Shown here piece by piece: positions 3,800-57,279 of a DNA stretch of 64,000 nucleotides. Every line of letters starts with the position of its first letter. Within the stretch, counting starts at the first letter, position 1. The translations under genes were made by a program, and so were the position numbers. Location: positions 2,458 to 66,457 of the IMG/VR virus record IMGVR_UViG_3300025880_000014. One strand, 5' to 3'. The stretch comes from a virus. The notes under the pieces were generated by a model that ran no database searches, was not told where the DNA came from, and saw only the letters and a list, made by a program, of their open reading frames with translations.

Positions 3800-3846
3800 G
3801 GGACCTCTTTTTAGTTAAATTATATATCATAATTTTAAGAGGTCCC
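3800..3846 (-). promoter_or_regulatory. 10-bp inverted repeat (GGGACCTCTT / AAGAGGTCCC) covering the SD-like AAGAGGT of the 3795 gene, with a GATATATA motif in the loop
   Basis: Arms at 3800-3809 and 3837-3846; TATATATC at 3821-3828; AAGAGGT is 7 nt before the ATG on the minus strand. Confidence 0.55.
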
Positions 3847-7523: not shown

Positions 7524-9506
7524 TTATCTTATAATTTCAAGTTCGAATGTCTTGTTTATTTCGTCAACGCAAACTAATTCGATATATGGCTTATTACTTA
7601 ATAGATCGGTTGAGTTGATCGTATTTTTTAATACCCATTTATCTTTTTTACCTACGTATATATTAATTCCATTATTATCTAAGTCTAAAATAGGTGTTTT
7701 AAAAGCTAATTTAACAATATGTCCTAATTTAACAGGGATAACGCTGTCATCTAAGTATATATCCAAATCACTAGTGAACGTCTCTCCTTGCTCAGTGTAT
7801 ATTCTAATTAGATTATCATATCTCTTAAGTCTTGTCCATATCCCAATACCAGATGCAGCTTGTTGAGGATTCCAAGGTGATGTTTCACTTATTTTATCAA
7901 CAACAACATTTCCACTAGAATCGTATGTGTGTAATTCATTAAGACTATATCCGTTGTTTGTGTTTTGTATTTTTATTTTTTCCGGGTTACTTTTATCTAT
8001 TAAGATACCATTTCCAGCTGCAATAACGTCTGTGTTGTATTGAACTGCTGTTGGAATCTTACCACTGATAACCTGGTTTAATCTGTCATTTGTCTTAGAT
8101 ATAATATCTAAGATTGATCCAGCATTGCTAAAGTTTAATGATGCATCTTCGATAGATTGCTCTAATGCTTCTACTTTAACAGAGATAGAGCTTTGATCAA
8201 CTGAAGTCATCATTAAATTTTCTAAACTATCTAATCTGTTAGATATGATATTAAATCTATGACTAGCTTCTGCTAATATTTTAGCAGCATTTTCTAAAGA
8301 ACTTGTAGTATCAAAAAACAAATCCATCGAGAACGTTGTAAAGTCATTGATGTTTGTTTCAATACCTACATTATCTAAAGATGAATTAAACTTAACGTTT
8401 AATTTTAAAGCAAATGCATTTCCGTTTAGTCCAGTTACTTCGTTTGGCTTATATTTACTTAATTCAGGTAGATACCATCCCGTATTAGCAGGATCATATT
8501 TCCAGTTGTCTAATATAATAACACCATATAGGTTAGTTGTTCTATTTCCTGGGTTTGATTTAGAGTAAACATCATAGTATACTAAAATTGCATTGAATCT
8601 AAAATCTCCACCTCTTTTCGAGTAGTCTTGAATTGTACTTAACTTAGAGTCTGCATCAATTGCAGCATAAGATACTGGATTCCATTCAATTCCGTAATTG
8701 TATGTTGAATTCGGATCGATATTAATTGTACCGTTTTCAGAATCTGCAAGAGACTCTAATGAAATATTAGAATCTGGGTGAGCTTGACCATCTCTTCCGT
8801 TAATATAAGAACCTGGCTGATATGCGGTAGCTGTTGTGTTAAAGGTTGAATTTTTAAATAAAACTGTTGGAGTGTATCCAGCTGAAGTAGGAACATTAAT
8901 GAAAACTTCATTATAAGTATCACCGTTATAATTTTTATCATTAGTTACGTCTACATTTCCTAAGTATTTCACTACTTGGCCGTATTCAGATCCACTTTGA
9001 ATTGAATCATCTTCTTCAACTACTCTATTATAACCTGAAGTTGCTTCTTGCGAATTAGCAGGTCTTGTTCTAAATGCTCCAATTTCATTTAACCATTTAA
9101 AAAAGATTTTTTCTGAATCAGATGCATATATTGTGCTATCAAAATCGTCATCCGTTAAGATAAAATTCTCAAGGTTGAGCGCATAATTCTGGAACGTAGT
9201 AGCAAAATGGCGATTTGCGTTATCGTCCGGAGAAGTCGCATCATAATTAGGTGCAATCCCTGGTAAGCCGGTTACCGGGTCAACAGCAACTGGTCCACCC
9301 TCATGTAAATTACCGAATTGTATGTAATTGTTTGTTGAATTACCTGAAGGTTCTGCAACCACTGGTAAATCTAATAGAGCGAATTTCGAATATTCAAAAA
9401 CAACATCTGGATTATAGTATGCGCGTGTAAGATCTCTAGCAGCACTAGAAAAAGCGTACATAGTACCTCCCTGTTCTTGAGGAATTCTAATTAATGGTGT
9501 AGCCAT
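7524..9506 (-). CDS. Virion structural protein (660 aa) with a coiled-coil segment
   Basis: ORF track; 2-nt gap to the next gene; Asn/Ser/Thr-rich. Confidence 0.55.
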   Translation of the reverse strand: MATPLIRIPQEQGGTMYAFSSAARDLTRAYYNPDVVFEYSKFALLDLPVVAEPSGNSTNNYIQFGNLHEGGPVAVDPVTGLPGIAPNYDATSPDDNANRHFATTFQNYALNLENFILTDDDFDSTIYASDSEKIFFKWLNEIGAFRTRPANSQEATSGYNRVVEEDDSIQSGSEYGQVVKYLGNVDVTNDKNYNGDTYNEVFINVPTSAGYTPTVLFKNSTFNTTATAYQPGSYINGRDGQAHPDSNISLESLADSENGTINIDPNSTYNYGIEWNPVSYAAIDADSKLSTIQDYSKRGGDFRFNAILVYYDVYSKSNPGNRTTNLYGVIILDNWKYDPANTGWYLPELSKYKPNEVTGLNGNAFALKLNVKFNSSLDNVGIETNINDFTTFSMDLFFDTTSSLENAAKILAEASHRFNIISNRLDSLENLMMTSVDQSSISVKVEALEQSIEDASLNFSNAGSILDIISKTNDRLNQVISGKIPTAVQYNTDVIAAGNGILIDKSNPEKIKIQNTNNGYSLNELHTYDSSGNVVVDKISETSPWNPQQAASGIGIWTRLKRYDNLIRIYTEQGETFTSDLDIYLDDSVIPVKLGHIVKLAFKTPILDLDNNGINIYVGKKDKWVLKNTINSTDLLSNKPYIELVCVDEINKTFELEIIR

Positions 9507-10070: not shown

Positions 10071-12794
10071 TTAAATAATTTTTAATATGTTTTTATTTAC
10101 TGTGTTTTTATTTCCGTTAGAATCCAATAAATCTAAAGATATTGTATAATATCCCTTGTCGCTAAACAAGTGAGTTAATATTGGATTACTATAATATATA
10201 TCTTCGATATTTAATGTATTGTTAGTTAATTTCCACTGTTGGCTAATTATTCCTGGCATGTTACTTAAATCATACGAAAATGTCATATGATTTAAAAGAT
10301 GCAATTCCGCCATACTATTTACTATATATGTGTCATCAAAACTAGGGTTATAACTTATAAAGTTAATCTCCTCGTTGATTGCATTCACAGAACTTAAAAA
10401 AGATATTGATTTAAAATCAAAACTCCTAGAAGGTTCTTTTCCAACTACTAATATATATTCACATTTATCTTCAGTACCGTCCGCATCTATGTCTTTTAAA
10501 ATTGGATTGTAATTAAATTTAGAAAACAATGGATGCTCTTCTGGATCTAAAGTTCTTAATTCAAACGCAACGTCATTCCATAAAGAGATTTCAGTATGTA
10601 AAGTTGGTAGTGTAGATGTAATTGTATATGAATCTTCGATAGAATCTCCAGTTATCGGATCTTCCTGTGTAATTGTTAAAACATCTCCTTGTATTACATT
10701 AGTTAAATCTATCTGAAAAGAAGAATTAATGTCTGCGCCGACTCTTGTCATTTTCCAAGTAATCTCCGGTCCGTCGTCCCATACATGCGCCTTAAGAGAT
10801 GCCCATTGATATGGGCCAGCAGTTTCACTAAAACCACTTGCACTACTAGAATCTAAATATCTCCTAACAGTTGACGCTGCTATTCCATACTGATTTTGAT
10901 CATATATGTAATTTGCACGATCCATTGTTAAATAATAAGTTCCAATTACTTCATCAACTGGCGTGATATTTTCTCTTGACCAATCCCAACTAGAACCAGC
11001 AGTATCCCATTTATGTTTATATTCTTTCCAGTCTAATTTTTTAGGTGCTAATTGAGTCAATCCATAAACTTCAACGTTTTTGTTTTTAACTTCAATCGCA
11101 TCTTTTAAAATCTTAGTACTTTTAACGTTATATAAATCGTATGCATTTGCCTCAACAGTATAAGTACCAACATAAGGTAAAGTCATTGGAAAATGCAAAT
11201 ATTCTTCGATAGGCCCTCTGAAAGATCTTAGATAATTCTTTGGTCCTCTTAATACCCATTCAATTTCGTAAACTCCACGATGCCACCAATTATCCCAAGT
11301 CAATAGGTGATTACCAGTATCTTCGGCATCCATAAAAGAAAATTCAGCAGCATCCCAGCTGTCTTCAATTCCTTCAATGTGTAAATTGATTGGGGCTCCA
11401 ATTGGAATTCCATCAATTGTGTTAAATGTATCTAAATTGCTATTGTAATATTCTGTATAAAAATCAGTAATAGATTCCGCGATAGTTAATTTATCTGAAG
11501 AACTAATAGAACCAAAGTCCTGTGCAAATCCTGTAAGTCTATAATCAACTTTACGTAAATCTTCTATAAATATATTTCTACCAGACGGCTCAATGACAGG
11601 GTTAAATTCAACCCCAGCGTCTTGTGTTTTAATAGATTGTTGGTTGTTCCAAACGTTTTGATTAAATTGAGAAAAGTAATCACCTTCACCTGTAATATCT
11701 ACAATCTTAGCTTGCAGTGGAAGATAATCTTTTTGTAATTTCTTTTTTAATCCGTATAATTTAATTAAAACTTCATCTGGTGAATAGTCAATAGTCTCCT
11801 GTACTGTTGGAATATCCCACTCATCTTGTAGCCCTGTTGGTGTATTTAATCGATACACTAAACTAAACCTTGAGGTTTTCTTTTGATTTGAGTTTGGTAA
11901 CTCTCCTCCTTTATTTTTGTCAGCTAAGAAACCAACAACATCTTGATTTGGAACAGCAACTGCTTTTAATTTTCCAAAGTTTTCAGATTGTTCATTGATA
12001 TTTAGCCAATATTCTTTTAGTGTGATTTTATCGTATCCAAAGAAATCAATTGCATTTAGCAGAGCTTTATACGTTCCAATAAATGGCTTGATTTGAGAAG
12101 CTTGTAAAAGTAATTCTTTACGCTTTTGATTTAATATAATAAAATCAGGAGATTGTTCTTGTATGTTAGAATCTTTAAAGATAAAATAATCTAAATCATC
12201 TAAGTTCATTCCCATGTTAGAAAGTAAAGTTCTTAGTCTTTCATCCTCTCCTTCGACTTCACCGTATACTTTAATTTGTGCAATCTCTCTAGTTTCAACA
12301 CCATCAACTAATTCAGTAATGCTTAAAGTTCTAATGTGAAAACCTTCATCACTAGAATTTAGTGCAACTTGTGCAGTTATTGGTGTGGCTTTTAAATTAT
12401 CTGTAACTACTTTTATATCGTTAGATGTTGAGGTTGAAGTAGTTGCCGGCAGTAGTTGACCTACTTGTGAATTATCTATTTGTATGTATAATTCTCCTGA
12501 ATCTTGCTTAGCACTATATAGAAATAAATCTTCGCTCGTATTATAGTCATCTTTAAATCTAAATTTAAAAGAAACTTCACCAGTAGATTCTGCAATTGGA
12601 GTTACGTGTAACTTTTCACCTAAAGGCCCTACGACTTCTTCTAATATATGTAAAGTTAATGTCTCATATAGCTCAGTAGAAACAACTGGTAAATATGAAA
12701 CCCCTTTCCAAATATTTAATTCATTGTCATAAATTAAATTTAAGTCATTAGATTCACTATCAAAAAATCTTAGATTGCTATAAGTGTTTGCCAT
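10071..12794 (-). CDS. Baseplate-associated structural protein (907 aa) with Ig/PKD-like segments
   Basis: PKD-like motifs (GTYTVEANAYD; GYYTISLDLLDSNGN); downstream of the gp6-like gene. Confidence 0.5.
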   Translation of the reverse strand: MANTYSNLRFFDSESNDLNLIYDNELNIWKGVSYLPVVSTELYETLTLHILEEVVGPLGEKLHVTPIAESTGEVSFKFRFKDDYNTSEDLFLYSAKQDSGELYIQIDNSQVGQLLPATTSTSTSNDIKVVTDNLKATPITAQVALNSSDEGFHIRTLSITELVDGVETREIAQIKVYGEVEGEDERLRTLLSNMGMNLDDLDYFIFKDSNIQEQSPDFIILNQKRKELLLQASQIKPFIGTYKALLNAIDFFGYDKITLKEYWLNINEQSENFGKLKAVAVPNQDVVGFLADKNKGGELPNSNQKKTSRFSLVYRLNTPTGLQDEWDIPTVQETIDYSPDEVLIKLYGLKKKLQKDYLPLQAKIVDITGEGDYFSQFNQNVWNNQQSIKTQDAGVEFNPVIEPSGRNIFIEDLRKVDYRLTGFAQDFGSISSSDKLTIAESITDFYTEYYNSNLDTFNTIDGIPIGAPINLHIEGIEDSWDAAEFSFMDAEDTGNHLLTWDNWWHRGVYEIEWVLRGPKNYLRSFRGPIEEYLHFPMTLPYVGTYTVEANAYDLYNVKSTKILKDAIEVKNKNVEVYGLTQLAPKKLDWKEYKHKWDTAGSSWDWSRENITPVDEVIGTYYLTMDRANYIYDQNQYGIAASTVRRYLDSSSASGFSETAGPYQWASLKAHVWDDGPEITWKMTRVGADINSSFQIDLTNVIQGDVLTITQEDPITGDSIEDSYTITSTLPTLHTEISLWNDVAFELRTLDPEEHPLFSKFNYNPILKDIDADGTEDKCEYILVVGKEPSRSFDFKSISFLSSVNAINEEINFISYNPSFDDTYIVNSMAELHLLNHMTFSYDLSNMPGIISQQWKLTNNTLNIEDIYYSNPILTHLFSDKGYYTISLDLLDSNGNKNTVNKNILKII

Positions 12795-21582: not shown

Positions 21583-21610
21583 GATTATATTGTTTTATAG
21601 ACTATATATC

Positions 21611-30364: not shown

Positions 30365-30395
30365 AAAAAAAAGCCCGGATTTCTCCAGGCTTTTA
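30365..30395 (-). terminator. Intrinsic terminator (GCCUGGA-GAAA-UCCGGGC + U9)
   Basis: GNRA-loop hairpin with a poly-U tract after the acidic core protein gene. Confidence 0.85.
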
Positions 30396-30417: not shown

Positions 30418-31221
30418 TTACTCTACGTCTTCAGCGTCTTCTGCTGAATCAGATTCTTTCATTTCATTAATTTTAGTAGTATATGATTCGATCATTGAAT
30501 TACAAGCTGCTTCATATGTTTCAGTTGAATAATCTTCTTTCATTTCTTTAAGAGCTCCAGCTGCTAATGCTGCAACTAACGCTGCGTTTTCAGCCATGTA
30601 AGATTCTACAGTGTGAGAGTCGTGTGCGTCTTCTTCCCATGCTTTAGCTTCGTTTTTACAAGATTCATAAGCTTCTTTTAACATCGATGCTACTGCTATT
30701 GCAGCTGCAGGATTTTCGTTTACTTCTTCAGTCTCTTCAGATTCTTCTACTTTGTAAGTTTCTCCTTCGAATTCGAATTCATCTTCACCAGCTTCTTTAG
30801 CTTTTCTAACTGCGTCTCCGAATGCATTACCTTCTTCAACCTCTTCAACTTCTTCGTCAGCCTCTTCAACTTCTTCTTCGTTTAAAGATTTTACTCTAAC
30901 TGTTGCAGTTTCTTCTGATTCTTCGATATACTCTGATAAACCAGCGTCATCCCATCCGTATTGAGAATCTGCTAATACTGTTTCAAGATCTTCTCTTTTT
31001 CCTGTTAGTTCAACTTCTGGAAATCCTGAAGGACCGTCTTGGTCGATAACTTCCATAGAAACATTGTTCTTTTTAAGTAATTTTGCAAGACCTTTTGATT
31101 TTGGATCAACTGCGTCCATTACTACTGAAGCTTCTTGTACTTCTTGGTTGGTTGCTGTTTCTTGGGCAGCGTTTGCTTGTTTTTCAGCAACATACTGTTC
31201 AAATGATTTTAATTTTGCCAT
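30418..31221 (-). CDS. Highly acidic prohead core / internal protein with a capsid-targeting-like leader
   Basis: Begins MAKLKSFEQYVAE; Glu-rich with many [LIV]-x-E sites; strong GAA/GCT/TTC codon bias; own terminator. Confidence 0.55.
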   Translation of the reverse strand: MAKLKSFEQYVAEKQANAAQETATNQEVQEASVVMDAVDPKSKGLAKLLKKNNVSMEVIDQDGPSGFPEVELTGKREDLETVLADSQYGWDDAGLSEYIEESEETATVRVKSLNEEEVEEADEEVEEVEEGNAFGDAVRKAKEAGEDEFEFEGETYKVEESEETEEVNENPAAAIAVASMLKEAYESCKNEAKAWEEDAHDSHTVESYMAENAALVAALAAGALKEMKEDYSTETYEAACNSMIESYTTKINEMKESDSAEDAEDVE

Positions 31222-31271
31222 AATATAATTTATTTTAATTGTTTTTTATTATTAATCTATATATCTATGAA

Positions 31272-32303
31272 TTAAATGATGATTTCTTTGCCATCAATAA
31301 CGTCTTGATAGTTAACTCGGCATTTAGATCTTTTAATTTGATCTTCATTCTCTTCTAGGTTAATTTTATAAATAGGTCTAATATACTCTTCATTTAAGTA
31401 TGTTTTAAACTCTCTTGGTAGTTCCTCTTTGTAAAAATCCTCGTATATTGCAACATAAACCCTAGCCATTTTATCTGCGGCCATTCCTGAGGCTGAATTG
31501 ATCTCAGCAACCCAGCATTCGCCGGATTTATCTACCATTAGATCAATTGACCAAAGTCCAAGTTTTAATTTTTCTCTAACTGTTTTACAAATATCAGTTA
31601 TTTTATCCATGAAATCTAACTTACTCATATCTTGATCTACATAAGTAAATTCGGTTTTTTCACCAGATTTTTTATCTTTAATTTCATTTTCAGTTGCTGA
31701 TACTCTTTCATGTACTAATATAACATTATCATTTACTAATAAAATTCTAAACTCTGTATCTAAGTCTTTAGCTTCTGAATAGTTTTGAAATTCACCTTTA
31801 CTTTTTTCTAAGTCTTCATAAGTATCAAAAATTTCAATACCCATTCCGGAGTGCCCGTCGTCTGGTTTTGCAATTACTGGAAATTCTAAATCTTTTGCAT
31901 CTTCTTTTTTGTATACGGCCTTTGGTATAAAATCTGAATCGCCAAACATTTTATAAAAGTCAGTTTTATTACCGCTAATCTTCATAGCTTCGGGTACATT
32001 GTACATATCATCTTCTGATATATTATACTTCTCTAGAAAATCTAAGCCTTCTTTTGAATTTCCGCCATAATAAATAAGAGGTAGTTTTGAATTAACTTCC
32101 AAGTCTTTTCCATAATCTCCTTTTGCGTAAAAAGCGTTATAAAGCTCTTTTAAACAAATCTCATTTACTTCGCCGTAAATACTATTGTTTGTGCCAGTAA
32201 GTCCTTTTACCTCTTTTCCTGCTAATATAAAATTAACTTTTTTTAGATAATCTTTATTAGACTTTTCAAATAGAAATTTCTCAAAGAGTTTAACTTTTTT
32301 CAT
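31272..32303 (-). CDS. ATP-grasp ligase (RimK-like) with a capsid-targeting-like leader
   Basis: FPVIAKPDDGHSGMGI, EFRILLV, IDLMVD...WVAEINSASG; leader MKKVKLFEKFLFE. Confidence 0.8.
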   Translation of the reverse strand: MKKVKLFEKFLFEKSNKDYLKKVNFILAGKEVKGLTGTNNSIYGEVNEICLKELYNAFYAKGDYGKDLEVNSKLPLIYYGGNSKEGLDFLEKYNISEDDMYNVPEAMKISGNKTDFYKMFGDSDFIPKAVYKKEDAKDLEFPVIAKPDDGHSGMGIEIFDTYEDLEKSKGEFQNYSEAKDLDTEFRILLVNDNVILVHERVSATENEIKDKKSGEKTEFTYVDQDMSKLDFMDKITDICKTVREKLKLGLWSIDLMVDKSGECWVAEINSASGMAADKMARVYVAIYEDFYKEELPREFKTYLNEEYIRPIYKINLEENEDQIKRSKCRVNYQDVIDGKEIII

Positions 32304-32317
32304 TATAATCTTTTTAT

Positions 32318-32665
32318 TTATAGCATATATATCTTAATTCTAAGATCGGTTGTTCCTTTTATGATTCTGTGTATATTTCCTTTAGGAATCTTAAGGTCGA
32401 TCCCTGTAATTAATGGAGTTGGCAATTCATTGTCATATTGAAATCTCCAGTCAGAATCTTCTAATACTTCAATGACCCTATCCTCAGGGTCGCTGTGCCA
32501 TTTATATAAGTGTTCTGGATAACTTGGATCGAATGTTCTTATAACATAACCATCATATTGCTCTTCAACGAAGGGCTTGGTTTGATCATTAATGTTAGCT
32601 ATCAATTCTTCCATTGACATGCTACCGCATTTACAAGATTTACATTTACAATCTTTGTTTACCAT
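32318..32665 (-). CDS. Cupin-like protein with a Cys-rich N-terminus (start corrected to MVNKDCKC)
   Basis: KWHSD..DR.IEVL....W.FQ.D..LP and IPKGNIHRIIKG pattern; the ATG overlaps the upstream stop. Confidence 0.5.
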   Translation of the reverse strand: MVNKDCKCKSCKCGSMSMEELIANINDQTKPFVEEQYDGYVIRTFDPSYPEHLYKWHSDPEDRVIEVLEDSDWRFQYDNELPTPLITGIDLKIPKGNIHRIIKGTTDLRIKIYML

Positions 32666-33198
32666 GGTTGATCTGATTTTAAACCTAATTGCTTTCCAAA
32701 AAGAGTTGGTCCATAACATGCCCAGAATCCAGCTTTCATTGGATCCATCTTTGTGGCTTTATCACAACCATGTCGAGCCCAAAAACTAGCTGCTTTTCCA
32801 GGATCATCATTTTTAACAGAAAGATTTGGATCTCCCCATTCAACCTTTTTAGCGATGATGTTTCCTTCTTTGTCTTTTCTACCTCCGTCTCGATATACAA
32901 TAAACTTTTTACCTCCACCTCTTTCAGGTGAATCTAATTTAACTTTGATTGTTTTTCCGCCACGTGGAGTATAGACTGCTGGTTTACCTACATCAAGATT
33001 TTTAGCCATCCAGCCTGAAGGTCCTTTTAGAACAATGTTGTTTTTGTCCCAGTATTCTTTAACCTCTTCGAATAATTTAGAATATGCATCGCTGCCTAAT
33101 CTAAAAAAAGAATTAGTTAAATCTAAATCTTCATTAAGATGTGCCTTTAATTCCGGTGAAACCTTTTCCCAAGCTTCGAATGTTTTTATAAATTTCAT
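32659..33198 (-). CDS. DUF6321-like phage protein with a leader (start corrected to MKFIKTFEAWE)
   Basis: KKVEWGDPNLSVKNDDP.KAASFWARHGC..AGFWAC; the ATG at 33198 follows the upstream stop at 33203. Confidence 0.5.
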   Translation of the reverse strand: MKFIKTFEAWEKVSPELKAHLNEDLDLTNSFFRLGSDAYSKLFEEVKEYWDKNNIVLKGPSGWMAKNLDVGKPAVYTPRGGKTIKVKLDSPERGGGKKFIVYRDGGRKDKEGNIIAKKVEWGDPNLSVKNDDPGKAASFWARHGCDKATKMDPMKAGFWACYGPTLFGKQLGLKSDQPW

Positions 33199-33202
33199 AT
33201 TT

Positions 33203-33508
33203 CTACTTTTCCATGTTATCAATTAAATCCTGTCGGTCTAATTGCTTATAAACTTCTTTACGAACTTTTTCCATTTTCTCAGCATATTTTGGATCGTCAT
33301 TACGATTAAATACAACTTGTTGAGTTAGTGAACCACTGATCTTCTTAACATCACCTTTACGAGTCTTTATTAACCATGCTGCTAAATCTTTAATACCTAA
33401 GTCTTTAAATCTACCCTCAGCTTCAGGTGCATCTGACTGATAAAAATCTGGAGCTCCTGGTGGTTTTTTCTCTGTAATAAACTGTTCGAATAATTTAATG
33501 CGGTTCAT
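33203..33508 (-). CDS. Small basic protein with leader MNRIKLFEQFITE
   Basis: ORF track; shared N-terminal motif. Confidence 0.6.
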   Translation of the reverse strand: MNRIKLFEQFITEKKPPGAPDFYQSDAPEAEGRFKDLGIKDLAAWLIKTRKGDVKKISGSLTQQVVFNRNDDPKYAEKMEKVRKEVYKQLDRQDLIDNMEK

Positions 33509-33509
33509 A

Positions 33510-33857
33510 TTAATTAGGGTATTTTACCATTGTATTTCTTGTTAGACTCTTATCGTTATTTTTTACAAATCCTAAATCTTTATAAAAACTAGTAAGTCTA
33601 CTAATTGAAGTGGCTCCAAAATCTTTAGATGGTGTTAGAAATATAGGCTTGCCTTCTTTGTTTGCAAAATCTATAATTAATTTCATTACTTTAGTTCCGA
33701 TGCCCTCTCCTCTTTTTTCTTTGGGTATTTCAATTCTAGATAATTCTAAATATCTTTCAGTATTATATAAATCTAATACAACTCCAAATTCATCTTCTAA
33801 ATGTTGGAGTGCCATTTCTTCATTTAAAAATTCCTCGAATAATTTAACCCTTTTCAC
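33510..33857 (-). CDS. GNAT acetyltransferase with a leader (GTG start, MKRVKLFEEFLNE)
   Basis: Motif A KEKRGEGIGTKVM and LTSFYKDLGF; the GTG at 33857 is 1 nt after the upstream TAA. Confidence 0.8.
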   Translation of the reverse strand: MKRVKLFEEFLNEEMALQHLEDEFGVVLDLYNTERYLELSRIEIPKEKRGEGIGTKVMKLIIDFANKEGKPIFLTPSKDFGATSISRLTSFYKDLGFVKNNDKSLTRNTMVKYPN

Positions 33858-33858
33858 G

Positions 33859-34323
33859 TTAATCTTCTTTTGATTTAAATGGTAACTTTTTATCGTGACC
33901 TCCGTCTCTAACTTCTTTAGCGACGTCTTTGTCAGCACCTCCCCAAGTTCCTTTTCCTTTTTCTAAGAATGCATTTATTCTAGCGTATCCCCATCCTTCT
34001 TGCGTCATACCTGGATGGTGTCCGCTGTTCCAAGCGTCCATTCCGCGTCTCATTATAATTCTCAATAATGGTACAGGTACTCCACTTTCCTTTGATTTAT
34101 TCTTGATTCCGGTTTCTACAGCCTTGCCTTTGAGTGGGCTTCTGTCTCCTTTAGCTTTTTCTGCTTCATTAACAGATTCTCCTAAAATTGGAGTATTATC
34201 ATAACCACATTCGTGACATATATAAGGTTCTTTTCCACCTTCATCTAATCTCCACGACCAATCGCAACCTTCACAAGATACTTTGTTGGCTGAAAACTCT
34301 TCAAATAGTTTAATATATTTCAT
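33859..34323 (-). CDS. Zn-ribbon + DUF5824-like protein with leader MKYIKLFEEF
   Basis: CEGC...CHEC; RRGMDAWNSGHHPGMTQEGWGYARINAFL. Confidence 0.5.
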   Translation of the reverse strand: MKYIKLFEEFSANKVSCEGCDWSWRLDEGGKEPYICHECGYDNTPILGESVNEAEKAKGDRSPLKGKAVETGIKNKSKESGVPVPLLRIIMRRGMDAWNSGHHPGMTQEGWGYARINAFLEKGKGTWGGADKDVAKEVRDGGHDKKLPFKSKED

Positions 34324-34346: not shown

Positions 34347-34354
34347 TATATATC
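34347..34354 (-). promoter_or_regulatory. Putative late promoter GATATATA heading the leader-peptide cluster
   Basis: 24 nt upstream of the ATG; ATATATA recurs upstream of at least 16 other starts (see findings). Confidence 0.55.
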
Positions 34355-35282
34355 AGGATAAAACTAGATCATTTAAATATTCTTTACGATATTTGATTAA
34401 GGCAAGTTCTTTTGCTTTTACTTCTAATTCAATGTCAAGATCCATATTGTATGTTTCAATCTTTTCGTATATGTAGTCAGCATGTGCTCGTAAGATAACT
34501 GAATCATCCTCGTGCAGTTTTTTTGAAGATGAGTAGTGGCATAGCTGTCGAATACCTGCGGGCCAAGTTGATGCTGCTAATTTAAGAGCATCTTCTTCGG
34601 GCATTGGATCTTCGTAGCACCTGTGGTGGTGGTAATCGAACGTAATTGGAGTGCCAATTTTTTCGTAGATGTCATATAGATCTTGTACGGAATATTGTGC
34701 TGGTTTGTCGTCATTTTCTAGAACTAATCTAGCTTGAGCAGATGGACTTAGTCTTTTAAAATTCTCGACAAAACGTTGTTTTGCAGCTTCTTTGTCGCCA
34801 TAAGAACCCCCGACATGGATATTCATAGAATATGTGTGATTTTGTGGTAGTCCCATTGTATCTAATATAAGAGCAGACTGATCTAATTCTCGGATAGCAG
34901 CTGTAACAACCTTTGGAGTTGGGCTTGGTAAAACACAAAACTGACCTGGGTGAAAACCTACACGTTGGCCGTATTTTTGAACAAGCGTGCCAGCGCCTTT
35001 AAGTAAATTAGATATTGTTTGCCAATTAGGTAAATCAGATAATTCATACTCACTCATCCAAGGAAACATAGAGCTACTCATACGATAAACATTAATGCCT
35101 TGTTTGTGATTCCACTTTATAATCTCAATAAGATCTCGTACATTTGCTTCGGCCAATTCTCCGGCGTATTTGCTACCTTTAGCTGTGAATGTTCGTTTAA
35201 TCATTGATCGACCGATCTTGATGTCGTGATCTTTTTGTAGTGTTAAATTAATGCAACAGTATCCGTAGTTTGCTTTTCCCAT
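34353..35282 (-). CDS. uvsE: UV damage endonuclease (UvsE/UVDE)
   Basis: GYCCIN, YRMSS, HPGQF, LENDD, FDYHHH, HADYI and ELEVKAKE motifs. Confidence 0.93.
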   Translation of the reverse strand: MGKANYGYCCINLTLQKDHDIKIGRSMIKRTFTAKGSKYAGELAEANVRDLIEIIKWNHKQGINVYRMSSSMFPWMSEYELSDLPNWQTISNLLKGAGTLVQKYGQRVGFHPGQFCVLPSPTPKVVTAAIRELDQSALILDTMGLPQNHTYSMNIHVGGSYGDKEAAKQRFVENFKRLSPSAQARLVLENDDKPAQYSVQDLYDIYEKIGTPITFDYHHHRCYEDPMPEEDALKLAASTWPAGIRQLCHYSSSKKLHEDDSVILRAHADYIYEKIETYNMDLDIELEVKAKELALIKYRKEYLNDLVLS

Positions 35283-38246: not shown

Positions 38247-39030
38247 TGCTTAATTTTTTAATTTGTTTAACGTGCTCTAACTGTTCTTCTGTTAGTTCAA
38301 TATTAGATGTTCTTAATTTAATCATTAAGTTACCATACTGATTTGTATTATATATCGGAAATCCCATGCCCATAATTCTCAAAACTTTACCGTCATTAGA
38401 ATTACTAGGTACTTTTACCTTAACACTATTAACTTTAGTGGTGACTTTAAATTCTCCACCTAGTAAAATATCATAAAATGGTAAAGTATAATCTATCCAA
38501 ATATCTCCATTGGTTACGATCATTTCAGAATCTGGCATAATATTCATTATCAATATAACATCTCCATTTGGAGCAGATGAATTGACCGGGTGCGGCATGC
38601 CTTTTCCTTTTAATTTAAGTTTAGCACCTTCGTGAATTCCTTTAGGTATATTGACTTTAAATGTAGATTGCCCGGTATCGATTCTCTTGGTAGTTCCGTG
38701 ATATACTTCCTCTAATGTTATACCAAGTCTAATCGTGATATCAGATCCTTTAGCGCTTTGATTAAACGCATTATCAAACATATTAGAAAAGTCTCCTCCG
38801 AATTGATTGTAGAAATTATCGAAGTTACCTGACCTGAAAGTATTTTTAAGATCATACTCCTTTTTCTTGGTAGAATCACTTAAAGTCTCATATGCCTGTG
38901 AGATATTTTTAAATCGCTCTTCAGATCCTCCAATATCAGGGTGGTGTACTTTAACAAGGTTTCTATATGCCTTCTTAATGTCTGACTGGTTTGCGTCAGA
39001 TTTTAAACCAAGAACCTCGTAGTAGTCCAT
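38239..39030 (-). CDS. dnaJ: DnaJ/CbpA-type co-chaperone (J domain + C-terminal domain, no Zn finger)
   Basis: DYYEVLGL...IKKAYR.L....HPD; KGSDI.I.L.ITLEEVYHG; IPKGIHEG.KL.LKGKG. Confidence 0.92.
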   Translation of the reverse strand: MDYYEVLGLKSDANQSDIKKAYRNLVKVHHPDIGGSEERFKNISQAYETLSDSTKKKEYDLKNTFRSGNFDNFYNQFGGDFSNMFDNAFNQSAKGSDITIRLGITLEEVYHGTTKRIDTGQSTFKVNIPKGIHEGAKLKLKGKGMPHPVNSSAPNGDVILIMNIMPDSEMIVTNGDIWIDYTLPFYDILLGGEFKVTTKVNSVKVKVPSNSNDGKVLRIMGMGFPIYNTNQYGNLMIKLRTSNIELTEEQLEHVKQIKKLSNA

Positions 39031-39194: not shown

Positions 39195-39209
39195 AGTGTA
39201 TTATATATC

Positions 39210-49593: not shown

Positions 49594-52467
49594 TTATCCA
49601 ATATTTACACCGTTTTGGATAGTACGTACTCCACGCGTATGAAATATTTGACCGCTAAATCCTCCGGTTGCATTATTACCTTGATAACCCTGTGGTCCTC
49701 TTGCTCCGGTACCAGATCCACCCTGGACTCCTTGATAACCTTGTGGTCCTCTTGCAGGTGCAGGCTGTCCTCCAGCGCCTTGATAACCTTGAGGTCCTGA
49801 TGTTGCGGAAGCTCCTTTTGCTCCTTGTGTTCCTTGTGCTCCTGTTGCTCCTTTTAAACCTTGAGGTCCTCTTGGTCCTGCACCACCATTAAGTCCTACA
49901 TAACCTTGTGCTCCACGTGCTCCAACGTTTCCGTTTGCACCTTGTACTCCTTGAGGTCCTGTATATCCTTGAACTCCTTGAGCTCCCTGGGTTCCTTGAG
50001 CTCCTCTTACAGTACCTGCAGGTCCAATAAAACCTTTAAGTCCGGTTGAACCTTGTGGTCCTCTTACTCCCTGTGGCCCTGTTGGTCCTGTATATCCTTT
50101 TGGTCCTGTTGCTCCTTGGAATCCTCTGTGACCTGGCGCACCACTATAACCTTGTGGTCCAGTTAGTCCTTTATAACCCTGTACTCCTTGAGTTCCTCTT
50201 GCAGCCGCAGTTCCCTGTGGTCCAGTTATTCCTTTATCACCAGTAGCTCCTTGTGGTCCTCTTGGTCCAGTAGATCCTTTAAAACCTGTATCTCCTTTTG
50301 CTCCTTGTGCTCCTCTAATTCCTTGTGGTCCAAGATCTCCAGTAGGTCCAGTTGCTCCTTTAGGTCCGATATATCCGATATATCCTTTTGGTCCAGTTGC
50401 TCCTTGAGGTCCTTTAATTCCTTTTGCTCCAGTTGCTCCTTGATTACCCTTTGGTCCAGTTATTCCCTGAACTCCTTTTGCTCCTTGAACACCAATTGTT
50501 CCCTGAGCTCCTTGAGGTCCAGTATTTCCTTGAGGTCCTCTAATAGTTCCAGTACTTCCGGTTGCTCCTTGAAAACCTTTATTACCAGTAGCTCCGGTTG
50601 CTCCTTGATTACCTTTAATTCCTTGGAATCCTCTGTCTCCAGTTGCTGCAGTAGATCCTTTAAGACCTTGTGCTCCTCTAACTCCTTGATTTCCTTGGAA
50701 TCCTCTTGGTGCAGCAGTTCCCTGTGCTCCAGTATTTCCTTGAAATCCAATCTTTCCAGTTGGTCCTAAATCACCAATTGCTCCGGTATTTCCTTGAACT
50801 CCAATAAATCCTTTATCTCCTTTAATTGCACTTGGTGCGATATATCCAGTATCTCCCTGGAATCCTCTGTCTCCAGTTGCTCCTTGATTACCCTGTGCTC
50901 CTGTTACTCCAGTATATCCTTTTGCACCAGTAGTACCTTTAGCTCCTTGGAATCCTCTTGGTCCGCTAGATCCTTGATGTCCTCTTTCACCAGCATCTCC
51001 TTGAACTCCTTTTGAACCTTGTGGTCCAACTGCTCCAACAGATCCCTGTGCTCCTATTATTCCAGTGTTTCCTTGAACTCCAGTTGCTCCAGTTGCTCCT
51101 TTATCTCCAGTTGCTCCTTGAGGTCCTGTATAACCTTTTGCTCCTTGTGCTCCAAGAGGTCCTGTTAAACCTTTAGCTCCTTGATCTCCTTTGAAACCTT
51201 GATCTCCTTTAAGACCAACATTTCCAATAACACCTTGGTTTCCTTGAAAACCTCTTGGACCAGTGTTACCCTGTGCTCCAGTTGATCCTTTTAAACCTTT
51301 AGCTCCTTGATCTCCTTTGAAACCTTGATCTCCTTTAAGACCAACATTTCCAATAACACCTTGGTTTCCTTGAAAACCTCTTGGACCAGTGTTACCCTGT
51401 GCTCCAGTTGATCCTTTTAAACCTTTAGCTCCCTGTGATCCTTTAAAACCTCTTTCACCAATGATACCATCGGCTCCAGTAGATCCTTGATAACCTGTTG
51501 CTCCAGTAGATCCTTGTGTTCCTATTACTTTATTAATACCAGCGTCTCCTTGAGTTCCTTGATTTCCTTGAAAACCTCTGTCTCCTACGGGTCCGTTAAT
51601 ACCTGTTGTTCCTTTAATTCCTTTGTCTCCTTGGAATCCTCTGGCTCCATTTGAACCATTATTTCCTTTTGCTCCTTGAGGTCCTGTAAATCCAACGTCT
51701 CCTTGTGCTCCTCTGTTTCCATCAAGTCCTTTATAACCTGTTGCTCCAGTTGAACCTTTAAAACCTTGATCTCCGATTACTCCATCAGAACCTTGATCAC
51801 CTTTATAACCGGTAACCCCTTGATTTCCCTGAACTCCAATAGGTCCAGTAACTCCTTTGTTTCCGATAGATCCTTGGAATCCTCTGGCACCGTCTACGCC
51901 TGTTAAACCCTTAGTACCTTGAGTACCTTTAGTTCCTTGGTTTCCTTGGAATCCTCTTTCACCTTGATTTCCAACAATACCTTTAGATCCTTGAAATCCT
52001 CTTTCACCTTTAGCCCCAGTAGTACCTGAAATACCAATATCTCCTACTAATCCTTTACTACCACGTGATCCTTCACTACCAGTATCTCCTACTAATCCAG
52101 TATTTCCGAGAGAACCTTTATCTCCACGAAAACCTTCATCACCGGTATTTCCTTTTACTCCTTTTAAAGAAGAGAAATCACTAGGTGTAAAATTACCAGG
52201 TCTTAATATTAGATTGCCACCGATTGTTGAATCAGCCTTAAAGCTTCCGCCACCATCAAAAATACCACCCGCTATAATTGCGGAATCAGTACTCCTAATA
52301 GTTAACACATTCCCCGCAGGGAATGTGTTTAACTCTTCTAGGTAAGACGGCGTATAGACGATAGCTGAATCTTGGTCAATTCCTGCTCTGTTCGAGTTTT
52401 CATCGATCTGAGCCTGGAATTCTCCGGTAGATTGTACTAGTTTTATCGCTATTTTATTAAATGCCAT
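49594..52467 (-). CDS. Collagen-like fibre protein, chain C (957 aa) with a 102-aa N-terminal domain
   Basis: Gly-X-Y from aa 103 to about 932 (276 triplet equivalents). Confidence 0.9.
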   Translation of the reverse strand: MAFNKIAIKLVQSTGEFQAQIDENSNRAGIDQDSAIVYTPSYLEELNTFPAGNVLTIRSTDSAIIAGGIFDGGGSFKADSTIGGNLILRPGNFTPSDFSSLKGVKGNTGDEGFRGDKGSLGNTGLVGDTGSEGSRGSKGLVGDIGISGTTGAKGERGFQGSKGIVGNQGERGFQGNQGTKGTQGTKGLTGVDGARGFQGSIGNKGVTGPIGVQGNQGVTGYKGDQGSDGVIGDQGFKGSTGATGYKGLDGNRGAQGDVGFTGPQGAKGNNGSNGARGFQGDKGIKGTTGINGPVGDRGFQGNQGTQGDAGINKVIGTQGSTGATGYQGSTGADGIIGERGFKGSQGAKGLKGSTGAQGNTGPRGFQGNQGVIGNVGLKGDQGFKGDQGAKGLKGSTGAQGNTGPRGFQGNQGVIGNVGLKGDQGFKGDQGAKGLTGPLGAQGAKGYTGPQGATGDKGATGATGVQGNTGIIGAQGSVGAVGPQGSKGVQGDAGERGHQGSSGPRGFQGAKGTTGAKGYTGVTGAQGNQGATGDRGFQGDTGYIAPSAIKGDKGFIGVQGNTGAIGDLGPTGKIGFQGNTGAQGTAAPRGFQGNQGVRGAQGLKGSTAATGDRGFQGIKGNQGATGATGNKGFQGATGSTGTIRGPQGNTGPQGAQGTIGVQGAKGVQGITGPKGNQGATGAKGIKGPQGATGPKGYIGYIGPKGATGPTGDLGPQGIRGAQGAKGDTGFKGSTGPRGPQGATGDKGITGPQGTAAARGTQGVQGYKGLTGPQGYSGAPGHRGFQGATGPKGYTGPTGPQGVRGPQGSTGLKGFIGPAGTVRGAQGTQGAQGVQGYTGPQGVQGANGNVGARGAQGYVGLNGGAGPRGPQGLKGATGAQGTQGAKGASATSGPQGYQGAGGQPAPARGPQGYQGVQGGSGTGARGPQGYQGNNATGGFSGQIFHTRGVRTIQNGVNIG
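51165..51432. repeat. 126-bp perfect tandem duplication in collagen C (14 triplets)
   Basis: 51165-51290 vs 51291-51416: 126/126 identical, plus a 16-bp third partial copy. Confidence 0.9.
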
Positions 52468-52521
52468 ATCTTTGTTTTTATTATTTTTTAGTTACTCCTG
52501 TTTTATTTATTCCAATTAATA

Positions 52522-55500
52522 TTAATCGAATGAGAATGTAATGTCTCCATTTGCATCTCTTTCAATTCTTGCCGTTGGGTTACCGTTAGCATCTTCGAAA
52601 TAAATAGCTTTATCATTGGCGATTGTTATTGAATCTCCATCAAATGCTCCAGTTTCTCCTTGGAATCCTTGATCTCCTTTAGCTCCAGTTAAACCCTGTG
52701 CTCCAGTATCTCCTTTGAAACCTTGATCTCCTTTGAATCCTTGGTCTCCTTTAGCTCCAGTTAAACCCTGTGCTCCAGTATCTCCTTTGAAACCTTGATC
52801 TCCTTTGAATCCTTGGTCTCCTTTAATACCTTGAATACCATCGTCTCCTTTAGTACCTTGAACTCCTTGAATACCTTGAATACCATCGTCTCCTTTGAAT
52901 CCTTGATCTCCTTTTAAACCAGTATCTCCTTTGAAACCTTGATCTCCTTTAAGACCTTGAATACCTTGAATACCATCGTCTCCTTTAGTACCCTGAACTC
53001 CAATAACTCCTTGTTCCCCTTGGAAACCTTGAATACCTTGCTCTCCAGTATCTCCTTTGAAACCTTGATCTCCTTTAAGACCTTGAATACCTTGAATACC
53101 ATCGTCTCCTTTAGTACCTTGAACTCCTTGAATACCTTGAATACCATCGTCTCCTTTGAATCCTTGATCTCCTTTTAAACCAGTATCTCCTTTGAAACCT
53201 TGATCTCCTTTTAAACCAGTATCTCCTTTGAAACCTTGATCTCCTTTAAGACCTTGAATACCTTGAATACCATCGTCTCCTTTAGTACCCTGAACTCCAA
53301 TAACTCCTTGTTCCCCTTGGAAACCTTGAATACCTTGCTCTCCAGTATCTCCTTTGAAACCTTGATCTCCTTTGAAACCTTGATCTCCTTTAGCTCCTAA
53401 AGTACCTGATTCTCCTTGGAAACCTTGATCTCCTTTAAGACCTTGAATACCTTGAATACCATCGTCTCCTTTAAGACCTGTATCTCCTTTAAGACCAGTT
53501 TCTCCTTGGAATCCTTGATCTCCTTTAGCTCCAGTATCTCCCTGGAAACCTTGAATACCTTGTTCTCCTTGATCTCCTTTAAGACCATCAATACCTTGGA
53601 AACCTTGATCTCCTTTAGCTCCAGTATCTCCTTGGAAACCTTGATCTCCTTGGAAACCTTGGAAACCTTGATCACCCTGTGCTCCAATTTTCATTGGTGT
53701 GAAAGATACAATAATTTGACCATTTGCTGATGGGATGTTCGCTGCGTACGCGTCGTTAGTCATGTGTTCCGCAGAAGAAGTACCACCATCGTAATTACTG
53801 TTTGAACCACCAACTCTTACCATGTCTACTCTAAGATCTCCTCTTCCGGCAGAACCTAAAATAATGGAAGCGTTTGATGCTTCATATAAATGATATTTAC
53901 TAGAGTCTCCATTCTTAGAAACTTTTACGTAAATTCTATCGTAACCATCAGATACCATATTTGTAAATAAAGAATTCATGTGGTTGATATCTTGCAATCC
54001 GTTTGCGATATCTGAGAACCACCATTCTTGAGAACCTCCATAAATAAATGAAGATGCTTCAGTATGTCCTAATTGATTAACGTTTGTGTATTTATTATCT
54101 GAGAAGGTAATACCATCATAAACAACTGATAAACCACCAGCGTTACCTACAGTACCTTGGAATCCTTGATCTCCTTGATCTCCTTTAAGACCTTGGAAAC
54201 CTTGATCTCCTTGGAAACCTTGGAAACCTTGATCTCCAGTTTCTCCTTGAATACCTTGTTCTCCTTGATCTCCTTTAAGACCAGTATCTCCTTGGAAACC
54301 TTGATCACCTTGGAAACCTTGATCACCTTGGAAACCTTGGAAACCTTGATCTCCTTTAGCTCCTAATGTACCATCAACTCCTTGGAAACCTTGATCTCCT
54401 TTAGCTCCAGTATCTCCTTGGAATCCTTGATCTCCTTTAGTACCCTGAACTCCGATAACTCCTTGTTCTCCAGTATCTCCTTTGAAACCTTGAATACCTT
54501 GCTCTCCAGTATCTCCTTTGAAACCTTGATCTCCTTTAAGACCTTGAATACCTTGCTCTCCTGTATCTCCTTTAGTACCCTGAACTCCAATAACTCCTTG
54601 TTCCCCTTGGAAACCTTGAATACCTTGCTCTCCTGTATCTCCTTTAAGACCAGTTTCTCCTTGGATACCTTGGATACCTTGTTCTCCAGTATCTCCTTTA
54701 AAACCTTGATCTCCTTTAAGACCTTGAATACCTTGAATACCATCGTCTCCTTTAAGACCTGTATCTCCTTTAAGACCAGTTTCTCCTTGGATACCTTGGA
54801 TACCTTGTTCTCCAGTATCTCCTTTAAAACCTTGATCTCCTTTAAGACCTGTATCTCCTTTAAGACCAGTTTCTCCTTGGATACCTTGCTCTCCTGTATC
54901 TCCTTTAAAACCTTGATCTCCTTTAAGACCTTGAATACCTTGTTCTCCAGTGTCTCCTTTGAATCCTTGATCTCCTTTAAGACCAGTTTCTCCTTGGATA
55001 CCTTGGATACCTTGTTCTCCAGTATCTCCTTTAAGACCAGTTTCTCCTTGGATACCTTGAATACCTTGTTCTCCAGTATCTCCTTTAGTACCCTGAACTC
55101 CAATAACTCCTTGTTCCCCTTGGAAACCTTGAATACCTTGCTCTCCTGTATCTCCTTTAAGACCTGTATCTCCTTGGAATCCTTGATCTCCTTTAAGACC
55201 AGTTTCTCCTTGGATACCTTGGATACCTTGTTCTCCAGTATCTCCTTTGAAACCTTGATCTCCTTTAAGACCTTGAATACCTTGTTCTCCAGTATCTCCT
55301 TTAAAACCTTGATCTCCTTTAAGACCTTGAATACCTTGCTCTCCTGTATCTCCTTTAAGACCTGTATCTCCTTGGAATCCTTGATCTCCTTTAAGACCAG
55401 TTTCTCCTTGGATACCTTGTTCTCCAGTATCTCCTTTAAGACCAGTTTCTCCTTGGATACCTTGAATACCTTGTTCTCCAGTATCTCCTTTAGTACCTAC

Positions 55501-57154: not shown

Positions 57155-57279
57155 AGATTTTTAATTTTTTTTATTTTTTTATAATTTAAAAGAGGCTTTT
57201 TAACCTAATTTATCAATTCTATATATCATGATTAAAGAGGCGTAATGTCTATATACCTCCATAATATGGTAATATAATT

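Follow-up and report, generated by a model that had tools for sequence, protein, structure and literature searches.

Internal proteins of bacteriophage T4 reach the head through a short capsid targeting sequence (CTS) at their N-termini, which reads MKTYQEFIAE (PMC8442874), in which residues 4 and 7 are required for targeting and residues 8 and 10 for processing, and the prohead protease gp21 cleaves after L/I-X-E (PMC9026906). For IPIII, a stretch of ten residues at the N-terminus is enough to direct packaging, and the T-even internal proteins are diverse and share the CTS only (PMC9026906, PMC3012670). Outside such models, the proteins that a phage carries are hard to identify without purified virions and are undescribed for almost all uncultured phages. 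Here we analysed a 64-kb stretch (hereafter the window; positions 2458 to 66457 of IMG/VR record IMGVR_UViG_3300025880_000014) from an uncultured marine jumbo phage, in which six of seven tightly packed minus-strand genes begin with a common leader peptide.

Our analysis indicated that this 13-residue N-terminus is probably a propeptide for capsid targeting of the same type as the T4 CTS, a view based on the sequence of the leader, the point at which it ends and its likeness to repeats in a prohead scaffold protein. A full-text literature search for the leader peptide strings returned nothing relevant among the papers listed and no description of this leader was found, and a search on capsid targeting combined with anti-defence found only work on T4, P1 and phiKZ/SPN3US.

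The leader peptide and the genes that carry it

The leader has the consensus M-K-H-I-K-L-F-E-Q/E-F-[IVL]-x-E over 13 residues. In the window the motif M-x-x-[IVL]-K-x-F-E-x-[FYW] was found at six minus-strand starts (31221, 32303, 33198, 33508, 33857, the last with GTG, and 34323), and when the window and the entire contig of 71,584 bp were scanned in six frames with a regular expression, gene starts carried it only at these six positions, all inside 3.1 kb. BLASTP comparison of the six proteins gave alignable stretches only within residues 1–21 (10–21 residues per pair). The bodies were considered as possible paralogues and this was rejected, as their Pfam families differ and BLAST similarity past residue 21 was zero.

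To establish how widely the leader occurs, IMG/VR was scanned with degenerate DNA for M-K-x-I-K-L-F-E-[EQ]-F, a pattern that leaves residues 11–13 outside. At least 153 matches were recovered on at least 119 loci, nearly all at the starts of open reading frames (ORFs) and often two to four per locus. A relaxed scan of the fetched loci identified 266 leader ORFs whose bodies belong to at least 129 unrelated families, and a looser pattern applied to five large contigs gave 3, 4, 22, 21 and 20 matches (0 with a reversed-pattern control). In G002, a relative with a complete genome, the leader is carried by about 24 genes, and a single array at 193.6–200.3 kb accounts for 16 of these; LR756500 gave one leader match.

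The end of the leader was well defined. Residues 11–13 read [ILV]-x-E in 92 of 130 distinct leader proteins, against a background of 1.6%, and conservation in these proteins ceased after E13, with none from residue 14 onwards; together these two results indicate that the leader comprises 13 residues and that the last one is Glu. Four of the six window leaders have [ILV]-x-E at this position (V-A-E in g1). F7 and F/Y/W10 are conserved, placing aromatic residues three apart directly before the cut motif, and the leaders of some relatives read FEQFIAE. The peptide as a whole is short and amphipathic; residues 2 and 5 are basic, whereas positions 8 and 13 are acidic.

The six carriers of the window, all on the minus strand, have otherwise little in common. 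The first, g6 (33859..34323; 154 aa), combines the leader MKYIKLFEEF (MKYIKLFEEFSAN) with a CxxC...CxxC zinc ribbon followed by DUF5824. It is succeeded by g5 (33510..33857; 115 aa), which starts with GTG and joins the leader MKRVKLFEEFLNE to a small GNAT acetyltransferase domain, and by two basic proteins, g4 (33203..33508; 101 aa), with the leader MNRIKLFEQFITE and a body without an assigned family, and g3 (32659..33198; 179 aa), with the degenerate leader MKFIKTFEAWE and a body without a recognisable fold. Beyond them lie g2 (31272..32303; 343 aa; leader MKKVKLFEKFLFE), an ATP-grasp ligase domain protein (RimK / D-Ala-D-Ala-ligase-like), and g1 (30418..31221; 267 aa; leader MAKLKSFEQYVAE), a very acidic protein with a net charge of about −50. 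The seventh gene, g2b (32318..32665, minus strand; 115 aa), is leaderless with a Cys-rich N-terminus, and its start overlaps the stop of g3 (ATGGTAA). Genes g5, g4, g3 and g2b run on from g6 without gaps. The cluster is flanked on one side by a UvdE-type UV endonuclease gene (34353–35282) and on the other by a minus-strand intrinsic-terminator-like hairpin with a T run (30369..30394), which lies downstream of g1 and closes the cluster, and then by a dCMP deaminase gene.

Two of the leaders depend on the choice of start codon. The g3 start at 33198 is the first in-frame ATG, 4 nt past the g4 stop, within a longer TTG-started frame. The g5 start at 33857 is a GTG 1 nt past the g6 stop, and it is supported by the GNAT orthologue of G002, which has an ATG start and the same leader. 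An earlier reading of these letters without database searches (hereafter the sequence-only reading) had listed six N-termini, all of which were present exactly, and had described a leader fused to unrelated bodies, with which the BLASTP and Pfam results agree. It had also held that two leaders appear only after correction of start codons, and both corrected starts proved sound by their adjacent stops and, for g5, by the G002 orthologue. The motif scan of this phage and its relatives that it had proposed gave the six starts in the contig and the at least 119 IMG/VR loci described above.

Likeness of the leader to the prohead scaffold

Evidence linking the leader to the head came mainly from relatives, the contig of the window being a fragment estimated as 24% complete. 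The genome of the relative G002 (256,444 bp, 32.3% GC) has terminal repeats and is complete, and it is syntenic with the entire window contig, with protein identities of 30–77%. Its head module is arranged in T4 order, with Portal_T4 (8.5e-68), a small acidic gene, Peptidase_S77 (604 aa) and Gp23 (3.8e-43), the T4 map order being 20-67-68-21-22-23, and its capsid protein aligns with T4 gp23 at E=2e-13. The small acidic gene between portal and protease, in the position of T4 gp67/68, carries the leader in G001–G004; the orthologues in G001, G003 and G004 begin MKIIKTFEDFITE, MKHIKLFEEFVSE and MKIYNTFESFIKE. A leader gene also lies directly upstream of the protease in G008–G010, where it was assigned by position. 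The Peptidase_S77 protease family is encoded by 9 of 10 large leader-bearing contigs, G005 being the one that gave no significant protease match.

In this clade a long acidic region of scaffold-like character is joined to the prohead protease in a single protein of 604–638 aa (G002 51569–53383, equivalent to L126:11569-13383, minus strand; also in L120, L121 and L122). The scaffold-like region contains repeats of about 14 residues that end in [ILV]-A-E, and many of these read [YF]-x-x-[YF]-[ILV]-A-E, for example YSKYLAE, YSSYIAE, YAEYVAE and FFKFIAE. The core of the repeat is the core of the leader, F7-x-x-F10-[ILV]-x-E13, and also that of the T4 CTS, Y4-Q-E-F7-I8-A9-E10. In the G002 proteome, the pattern [FYW]xx[FYW][ILVM]xE was counted at six places within the protease-scaffold protein, at about 26 N-termini and at about 10 other sites.

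The protein g1 connects leader and scaffold directly. Its N-terminal half is the homologous part. It matched residues 369–495 of the G004 protease-scaffold protein (BLASTP E=6e-19) in an alignment that begins at g1 residue 1, so that the g1 leader sits opposite a G004 scaffold repeat ending YIAE and the same domain comes next in both proteins. The g1-type domain is thus inserted in the scaffold polyprotein of G004 and encoded as a separate leader-bearing gene in the window phage. We consider this natural fusion and fission the strongest single argument that the leader substitutes for being attached to the scaffold. A syntenic g1 orthologue with leader is also present in G002 (136198–136917).

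Among the T4 head genes examined (NC_000866, L142), the strict pattern [FYW]xx[FYW][ILVM]xE was present only at gp23 residues 59–65, FGSFLTE, ending at Glu65. A cut site in the G002 capsid protein was sought by analogy with T4; FGSFLTE is not conserved in G002, and the motif match of its capsid protein at residue 117 falls inside the mature fold. In T4, FGSFLTE is the maturation cut site of gp23, so that the core of the CTS may represent a feature by which the protease recognises its substrates in general.

By analogy with T4, and from the likeness between leader and scaffold repeats, we infer a sequence of docking, cleavage, retention in the head and injection. The leader genes would be transcribed late, alongside the head genes. 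The amphipathic leader would mimic one repeat of the acidic scaffold (aromatic-x-x-aromatic-[ILV]-x-E) and co-assemble with the scaffolding core in the procapsid, and the gp21-family prohead protease, which would cut the scaffold repeats after [ILV]-x-E, would also cut the leader after E13. The released cargo would remain free inside the head and exit with the DNA upon infection; in the window phage it would consist of the ATP-grasp ligase, the GNAT protein, the zinc-ribbon/DUF5824 protein, the two basic proteins and the acidic scaffold-related protein. We have good though incomplete confidence in a capsid-targeting propeptide operating by this mechanism. More tentatively, the leader could be a free-standing scaffold repeat such that any protein acquiring it is packaged and released, and the injected proteome of this abundant clade (about 20 or more proteins per genome and well over 100 families, including counter-defence proteins and host-modifying enzymes) could then be read from sequence; we consider this slightly less likely than not.

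Expression, cargo and alternative explanations

The promoter-like motif GATATATA precedes three genes of the cluster on the minus strand, 24 nt 5' of the g6 start (34347..34354), 23 nt 5' of the g2 start (32326..32333) and 37 nt 5' of the g1 start (31258..31265). All 10 sites in the window lie on the coding strand, the remainder at 3821–3828, 7756–7763, 10195–10202, 21603–21610, 38349–38356, 39202–39209 and 57220–57227 (minus strand), and in G002 that strand has 30 sites versus 1 on the opposite strand. Ahead of structural genes its distance is 20–120 nt. The motif occurs in G002 21–117 nt 5' of the capsid, protease, tail tube, sheath, baseplate, fibre and lysozyme-like genes and 35 nt upstream of the g1 orthologue, and several sites are kept 5' of orthologous genes in both phages. 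In the window, neither the UvdE nor the dCMP deaminase gene was found to have it upstream, and a sigma-70 scan returned matches at chance level. GATATATA is probably the late promoter of this clade, a counterpart of TATAAATA in T4, and its placement fits late co-expression of leader genes with head genes. Across all loci the motif stood before 35 of 244 leader genes compared with 109 of 1330 ORFs overall, a comparison that is uninformative because most leader genes lie inside tightly packed arrays. Contigs from RNA libraries of three studies cover parts of all cluster genes. They indicate presence only and may include DNA.

The cargo in the window was assigned largely by Pfam. Residues 75–133 of g6 matched DUF5824 (E=2.8e-10; 40.9 bits, cut-off 25). 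The small domain of g5 matched Acetyltransf_1 marginally (22.3 bits, cut-off 20.7), other GNAT models falling below their cut-offs. For g2, matches were obtained to Dala_Dala_lig_C (28.7 bits, cut-off 24), ATP-grasp_3 (24.2, cut-off 23.2) and RimK (22.9, cut-off 21), as well as to phrog_2599, and 11 leader-bearing homologues were present in the fetched loci. The GNAT domain of g5 also matched positions 2692–2781 of the 3925 positions of phrog_10691, so that the same domain is also present within giant multi-domain phage proteins. The conservation of g3 is unusually high: 265 homologues were detected at E ≤ 0.001, of which the 120 listed are 71–92% identical and derive from marine metagenomes including Tara Oceans. 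Its AlphaFold2 model (mean pLDDT, the predicted local distance difference test, 75.8) had zero fold matches in the PDB, and AlphaFold DB clusters gave only uncharacterised entries. Together with the leaderless g2b, g3 makes up a conserved gene pair in which the stop of one overlaps the start of the other; g2b homologues in L064, L119, L008 and L041 are likewise leaderless, and the one in L064 again lies behind g3.

Leader cargo in relatives included a Tad3-family protein (E=9e-22, above cut-off), 2H phosphoesterases (2_5_RNA_ligase2 at cut-off; Acb1 below cut-off), ankyrin repeats, a zeta-toxin/AAA_33 kinase, a cytidylyltransferase-like protein and ATP-grasp ligases. The Tad3-family, 2H phosphoesterase, zeta-toxin-like kinase and ankyrin carriers are located at L116:4618-5370, L103:10488-11045, L111:1120-1851 and L087:106-783, and at 197–200 kb in G002. 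These families suggest that counter-defence proteins may be pre-loaded into the capsid.

Across phages, the zinc-ribbon, GNAT, DUF5824 and g4 modules are shuffled in varied orders behind a single leader (L118:457-1473, L107:6002-6457, L078:12853-13305, L004:73-414). The zinc ribbon is fused to GNAT in some relatives, DUF5824 directly follows the leader in others, and in L118 the g4 body and DUF5824 are fused behind one leader; from these arrangements, the four modules probably share a pathway. The C-terminus of a 'cytidyltransferase' in Pelagibacter phage HTVC008M also consists of DUF5824. Close relatives whose shared proteins are 94–98% identical vary in cassette content, and some are without the GNAT gene. 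The GNAT cassette (window 33493–33852) is missing from a metatranscriptome contig and from IMG/VR locus L049, both from a near-identical phage, and the alignment joint falls inside the g5 and g4 leaders, so that cassette gain and loss may use the leader-coding sequence.

The window region itself was near-identical in marine metagenomes from 11 studies, and a DNA similarity search against deposited phages gave a single 99-bp match only. The deposited phages nearest by the baseplate protein are an uncultured 462-kb phage, Lak megaphages and Tenacibaculum jumbo phages, a pattern that points to a possible Bacteroidota host.

Several results weigh against capsid targeting followed by delivery. No canonical cut motif was present in 29% of the leaders in the wider set, and within the window g3 and g6 have no [ILV]-x-E at residues 11–13. 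Among g3 homologues E8 is not conserved and L-x-E is absent, and in the AlphaFold2 model residues 2–3 of g3 are predicted as a strand, such that they may belong to the fold; by analogy, g3 and g6 may be targeted without cleavage, like the T4 E10D mutant, or may not be true carriers. The head module was not found in the contig of the window (PF03420 not found in this 24%-complete fragment), and the protease and scaffold of this phage were consequently deduced from its relatives. Among cultured relatives, Tenacibaculum phages PTm1 and pT24 and Pelagibacter phage HTVC008M were tested, and the leader was not found in them. Sites of GATATATA in the window did not outnumber those in shuffled sequences (10 versus 6.05 ± 2.6), leaving strand and position alone in its favour. 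Finally, their acidic character sets g1, g2 and the head-module protein apart from the basic internal proteins of T4, and these three may be core components that are degraded and not delivered.

This last point leads to the best surviving alternative, which we nevertheless regard as unlikely, that the leader docks proteins on the prohead core and that some or all carriers are assembly components, such as scaffold accessories or size and shape determinants like T4 gp67/68. The carriers would then be degraded and expelled before DNA entry and the injected effector kit would be absent. The pronounced acidity of g1 and of the head-module protein is in keeping with such a role, as are the 13 [ILV]-x-E sites of g1, which give it a scaffold-like character, its homology to part of the scaffold polyprotein and the example of T4 gp67/68, which share the map position and are cut into fragments (PMC9026906); g1 itself may belong to the core and not be an effector. 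The remaining carriers are more difficult to reconcile with it. In g4 and g5, [ILV]-x-E occurs only at residues 8 and 13, and one cut therefore leaves the domain intact. There is no plausible assembly role for ATP-grasp, GNAT, 2H phosphoesterase, Tad3-family, ankyrin or zeta-toxin-like kinase cargo, and the differences in cassettes between relatives with 94–98% identity would be unexpected for assembly parts.

A second alternative, which appears improbable, is that the leader has no connection with the capsid and serves as an address or a regulatory tag, for example an amphipathic helix that directs proteins to a membrane or replication compartment, a shared handle bound by a phage or host chaperone, or a degron that sets the timing of turnover. 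A short amphipathic peptide with this distribution of basic and acidic residues could serve in this way, and G005 bears the leader with no significant protease match. Such a tag would leave unexplained why conservation ends exactly at [ILV]-x-E, why the protease-scaffold protein has repeats with this core, why g1 is interchangeable with a scaffold-embedded segment and why the leader is present on a gene of the head module.

Synonymous codon use at F7, E8, F10, E13 and I4 was close to that of the gene bodies, indicating that selection acts on the peptide and not on an RNA or DNA element. A nucleic-acid element (an AU-rich enhancer of translation initiation, a sequence bound by a translational regulator or a microhomology that drives the exchange of cassettes, with the peptide incidental) is accordingly very improbable, for although the leader codons are all AT-rich, codons ending in A are mildly over-represented at K5 and L6 (AAA 94% versus 75%; TTA+CTA 88% versus 62%) and the GNAT-less alignment joint falls inside two leaders, the six window leaders encode the same residues with different codons, amino acids being kept where the DNA differs, and an RNA element would neither end at a protease site nor recur inside a scaffold protein.

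The sequence-only reading had described a T4-like capsid-targeting leader on a packaged and injected effector kit, and it stands in part. The T4 leader that it gave, MKTYQEFIAE, and the gp21 cut after [LI]-x-E match the literature (PMC8442874, PMC9026906), and GATATATA was confirmed 23–37 nt upstream of the three starts, 34323, 32303 and 31221, before which it had placed a motif. Capsid targeting is well supported by the sequence evidence, namely the gp21-type site, the scaffold core, the leader gene at the gp67/68 position, the protease in 9 of 10 contigs and GATATATA; packaging, cleavage and injection are predictions. The shared leader, its end, its likeness to scaffold repeats, its gene context and the promoter-like motif are direct observations. 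It had counted two protein-modifying enzymes among the packaged proteins; Pfam places g2 in the ATP-grasp and g5 in the GNAT family, and protein modification as their activity is a family-level guess.

Comparison with T4 and phiKZ-like phages

As in T4, a short N-terminal peptide is found on unrelated proteins, with a core of aromatic-x-x-F-[ILV]-x-E that ends in the gp21 motif; Y4-x-x-F7-I8-x-E10 of the CTS corresponds to F7-x-x-F10-[ILV]11-x-E13 of the leader. The carrier genes likewise lie in a variable cluster whose changing cassette content resembles the T-even internal-protein loci, and the clade has a portal, protease and capsid module of T4 type. The leader differs from the CTS in its length, 13 residues in comparison to 10, with an extra M-K-x-I-K-L in front, and in the number of its carriers, about 20–24 per genome in complete or near-complete relatives in comparison to three internal proteins and Alt in T4. 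The putative cargo includes enzymes and acidic proteins and not just small basic ones, and the lineage is distant from T4, a marine jumbo phage nearest to Lak and Tenacibaculum jumbo phages by its baseplate.

Similar likenesses and differences were apparent in the head genes. The gene between portal and protease is small and acidic like T4 gp67 and gp68 and here bears the leader, and the scaffold region is acidic and rich in L/I-x-E sites like T4 gp22. In contrast to T4, protease and scaffold form one protein in this clade, and the scaffold repeats share the core of the leader, a motif that was not found in T4 gp22, gp67 or gp68. This likeness suggests a simple route for the origin of the tag and for its docking.

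If the tag works as the CTS does in T4, the cargo of a widespread group of marine phages could be listed from sequence, and it would comprise enzymes and likely counter-defence proteins that act prior to any phage gene expression. The pre-loaded counter-defence would include a Thoeris inhibitor of the Tad3 family as well as Acb1-superfamily 2H phosphoesterases, in addition to host-modifying enzymes. The tag could also act as a packaging handle for capsid engineering in this group.

A large packaged set is also known from phiKZ, 201phi2-1 and SPN3US, in which many head-internal proteins are cut after Glu by a gp21-related protease. The propeptides of those phages are long and mutually dissimilar with an S/A/G-x-E cut motif, and unlike the phages described here they have no short common leader from which cargo could be read in the sequence (PMC9026906, PMC7411985). 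In summary, the principle is already known from T4. What is new is a distinct 13-residue leader in a distant clade of marine jumbo phages, its scale, with about 20 or more carriers per genome and more than 100 body families, the enzyme and counter-defence-like cargo, and a visible likeness between leader and scaffold repeat.

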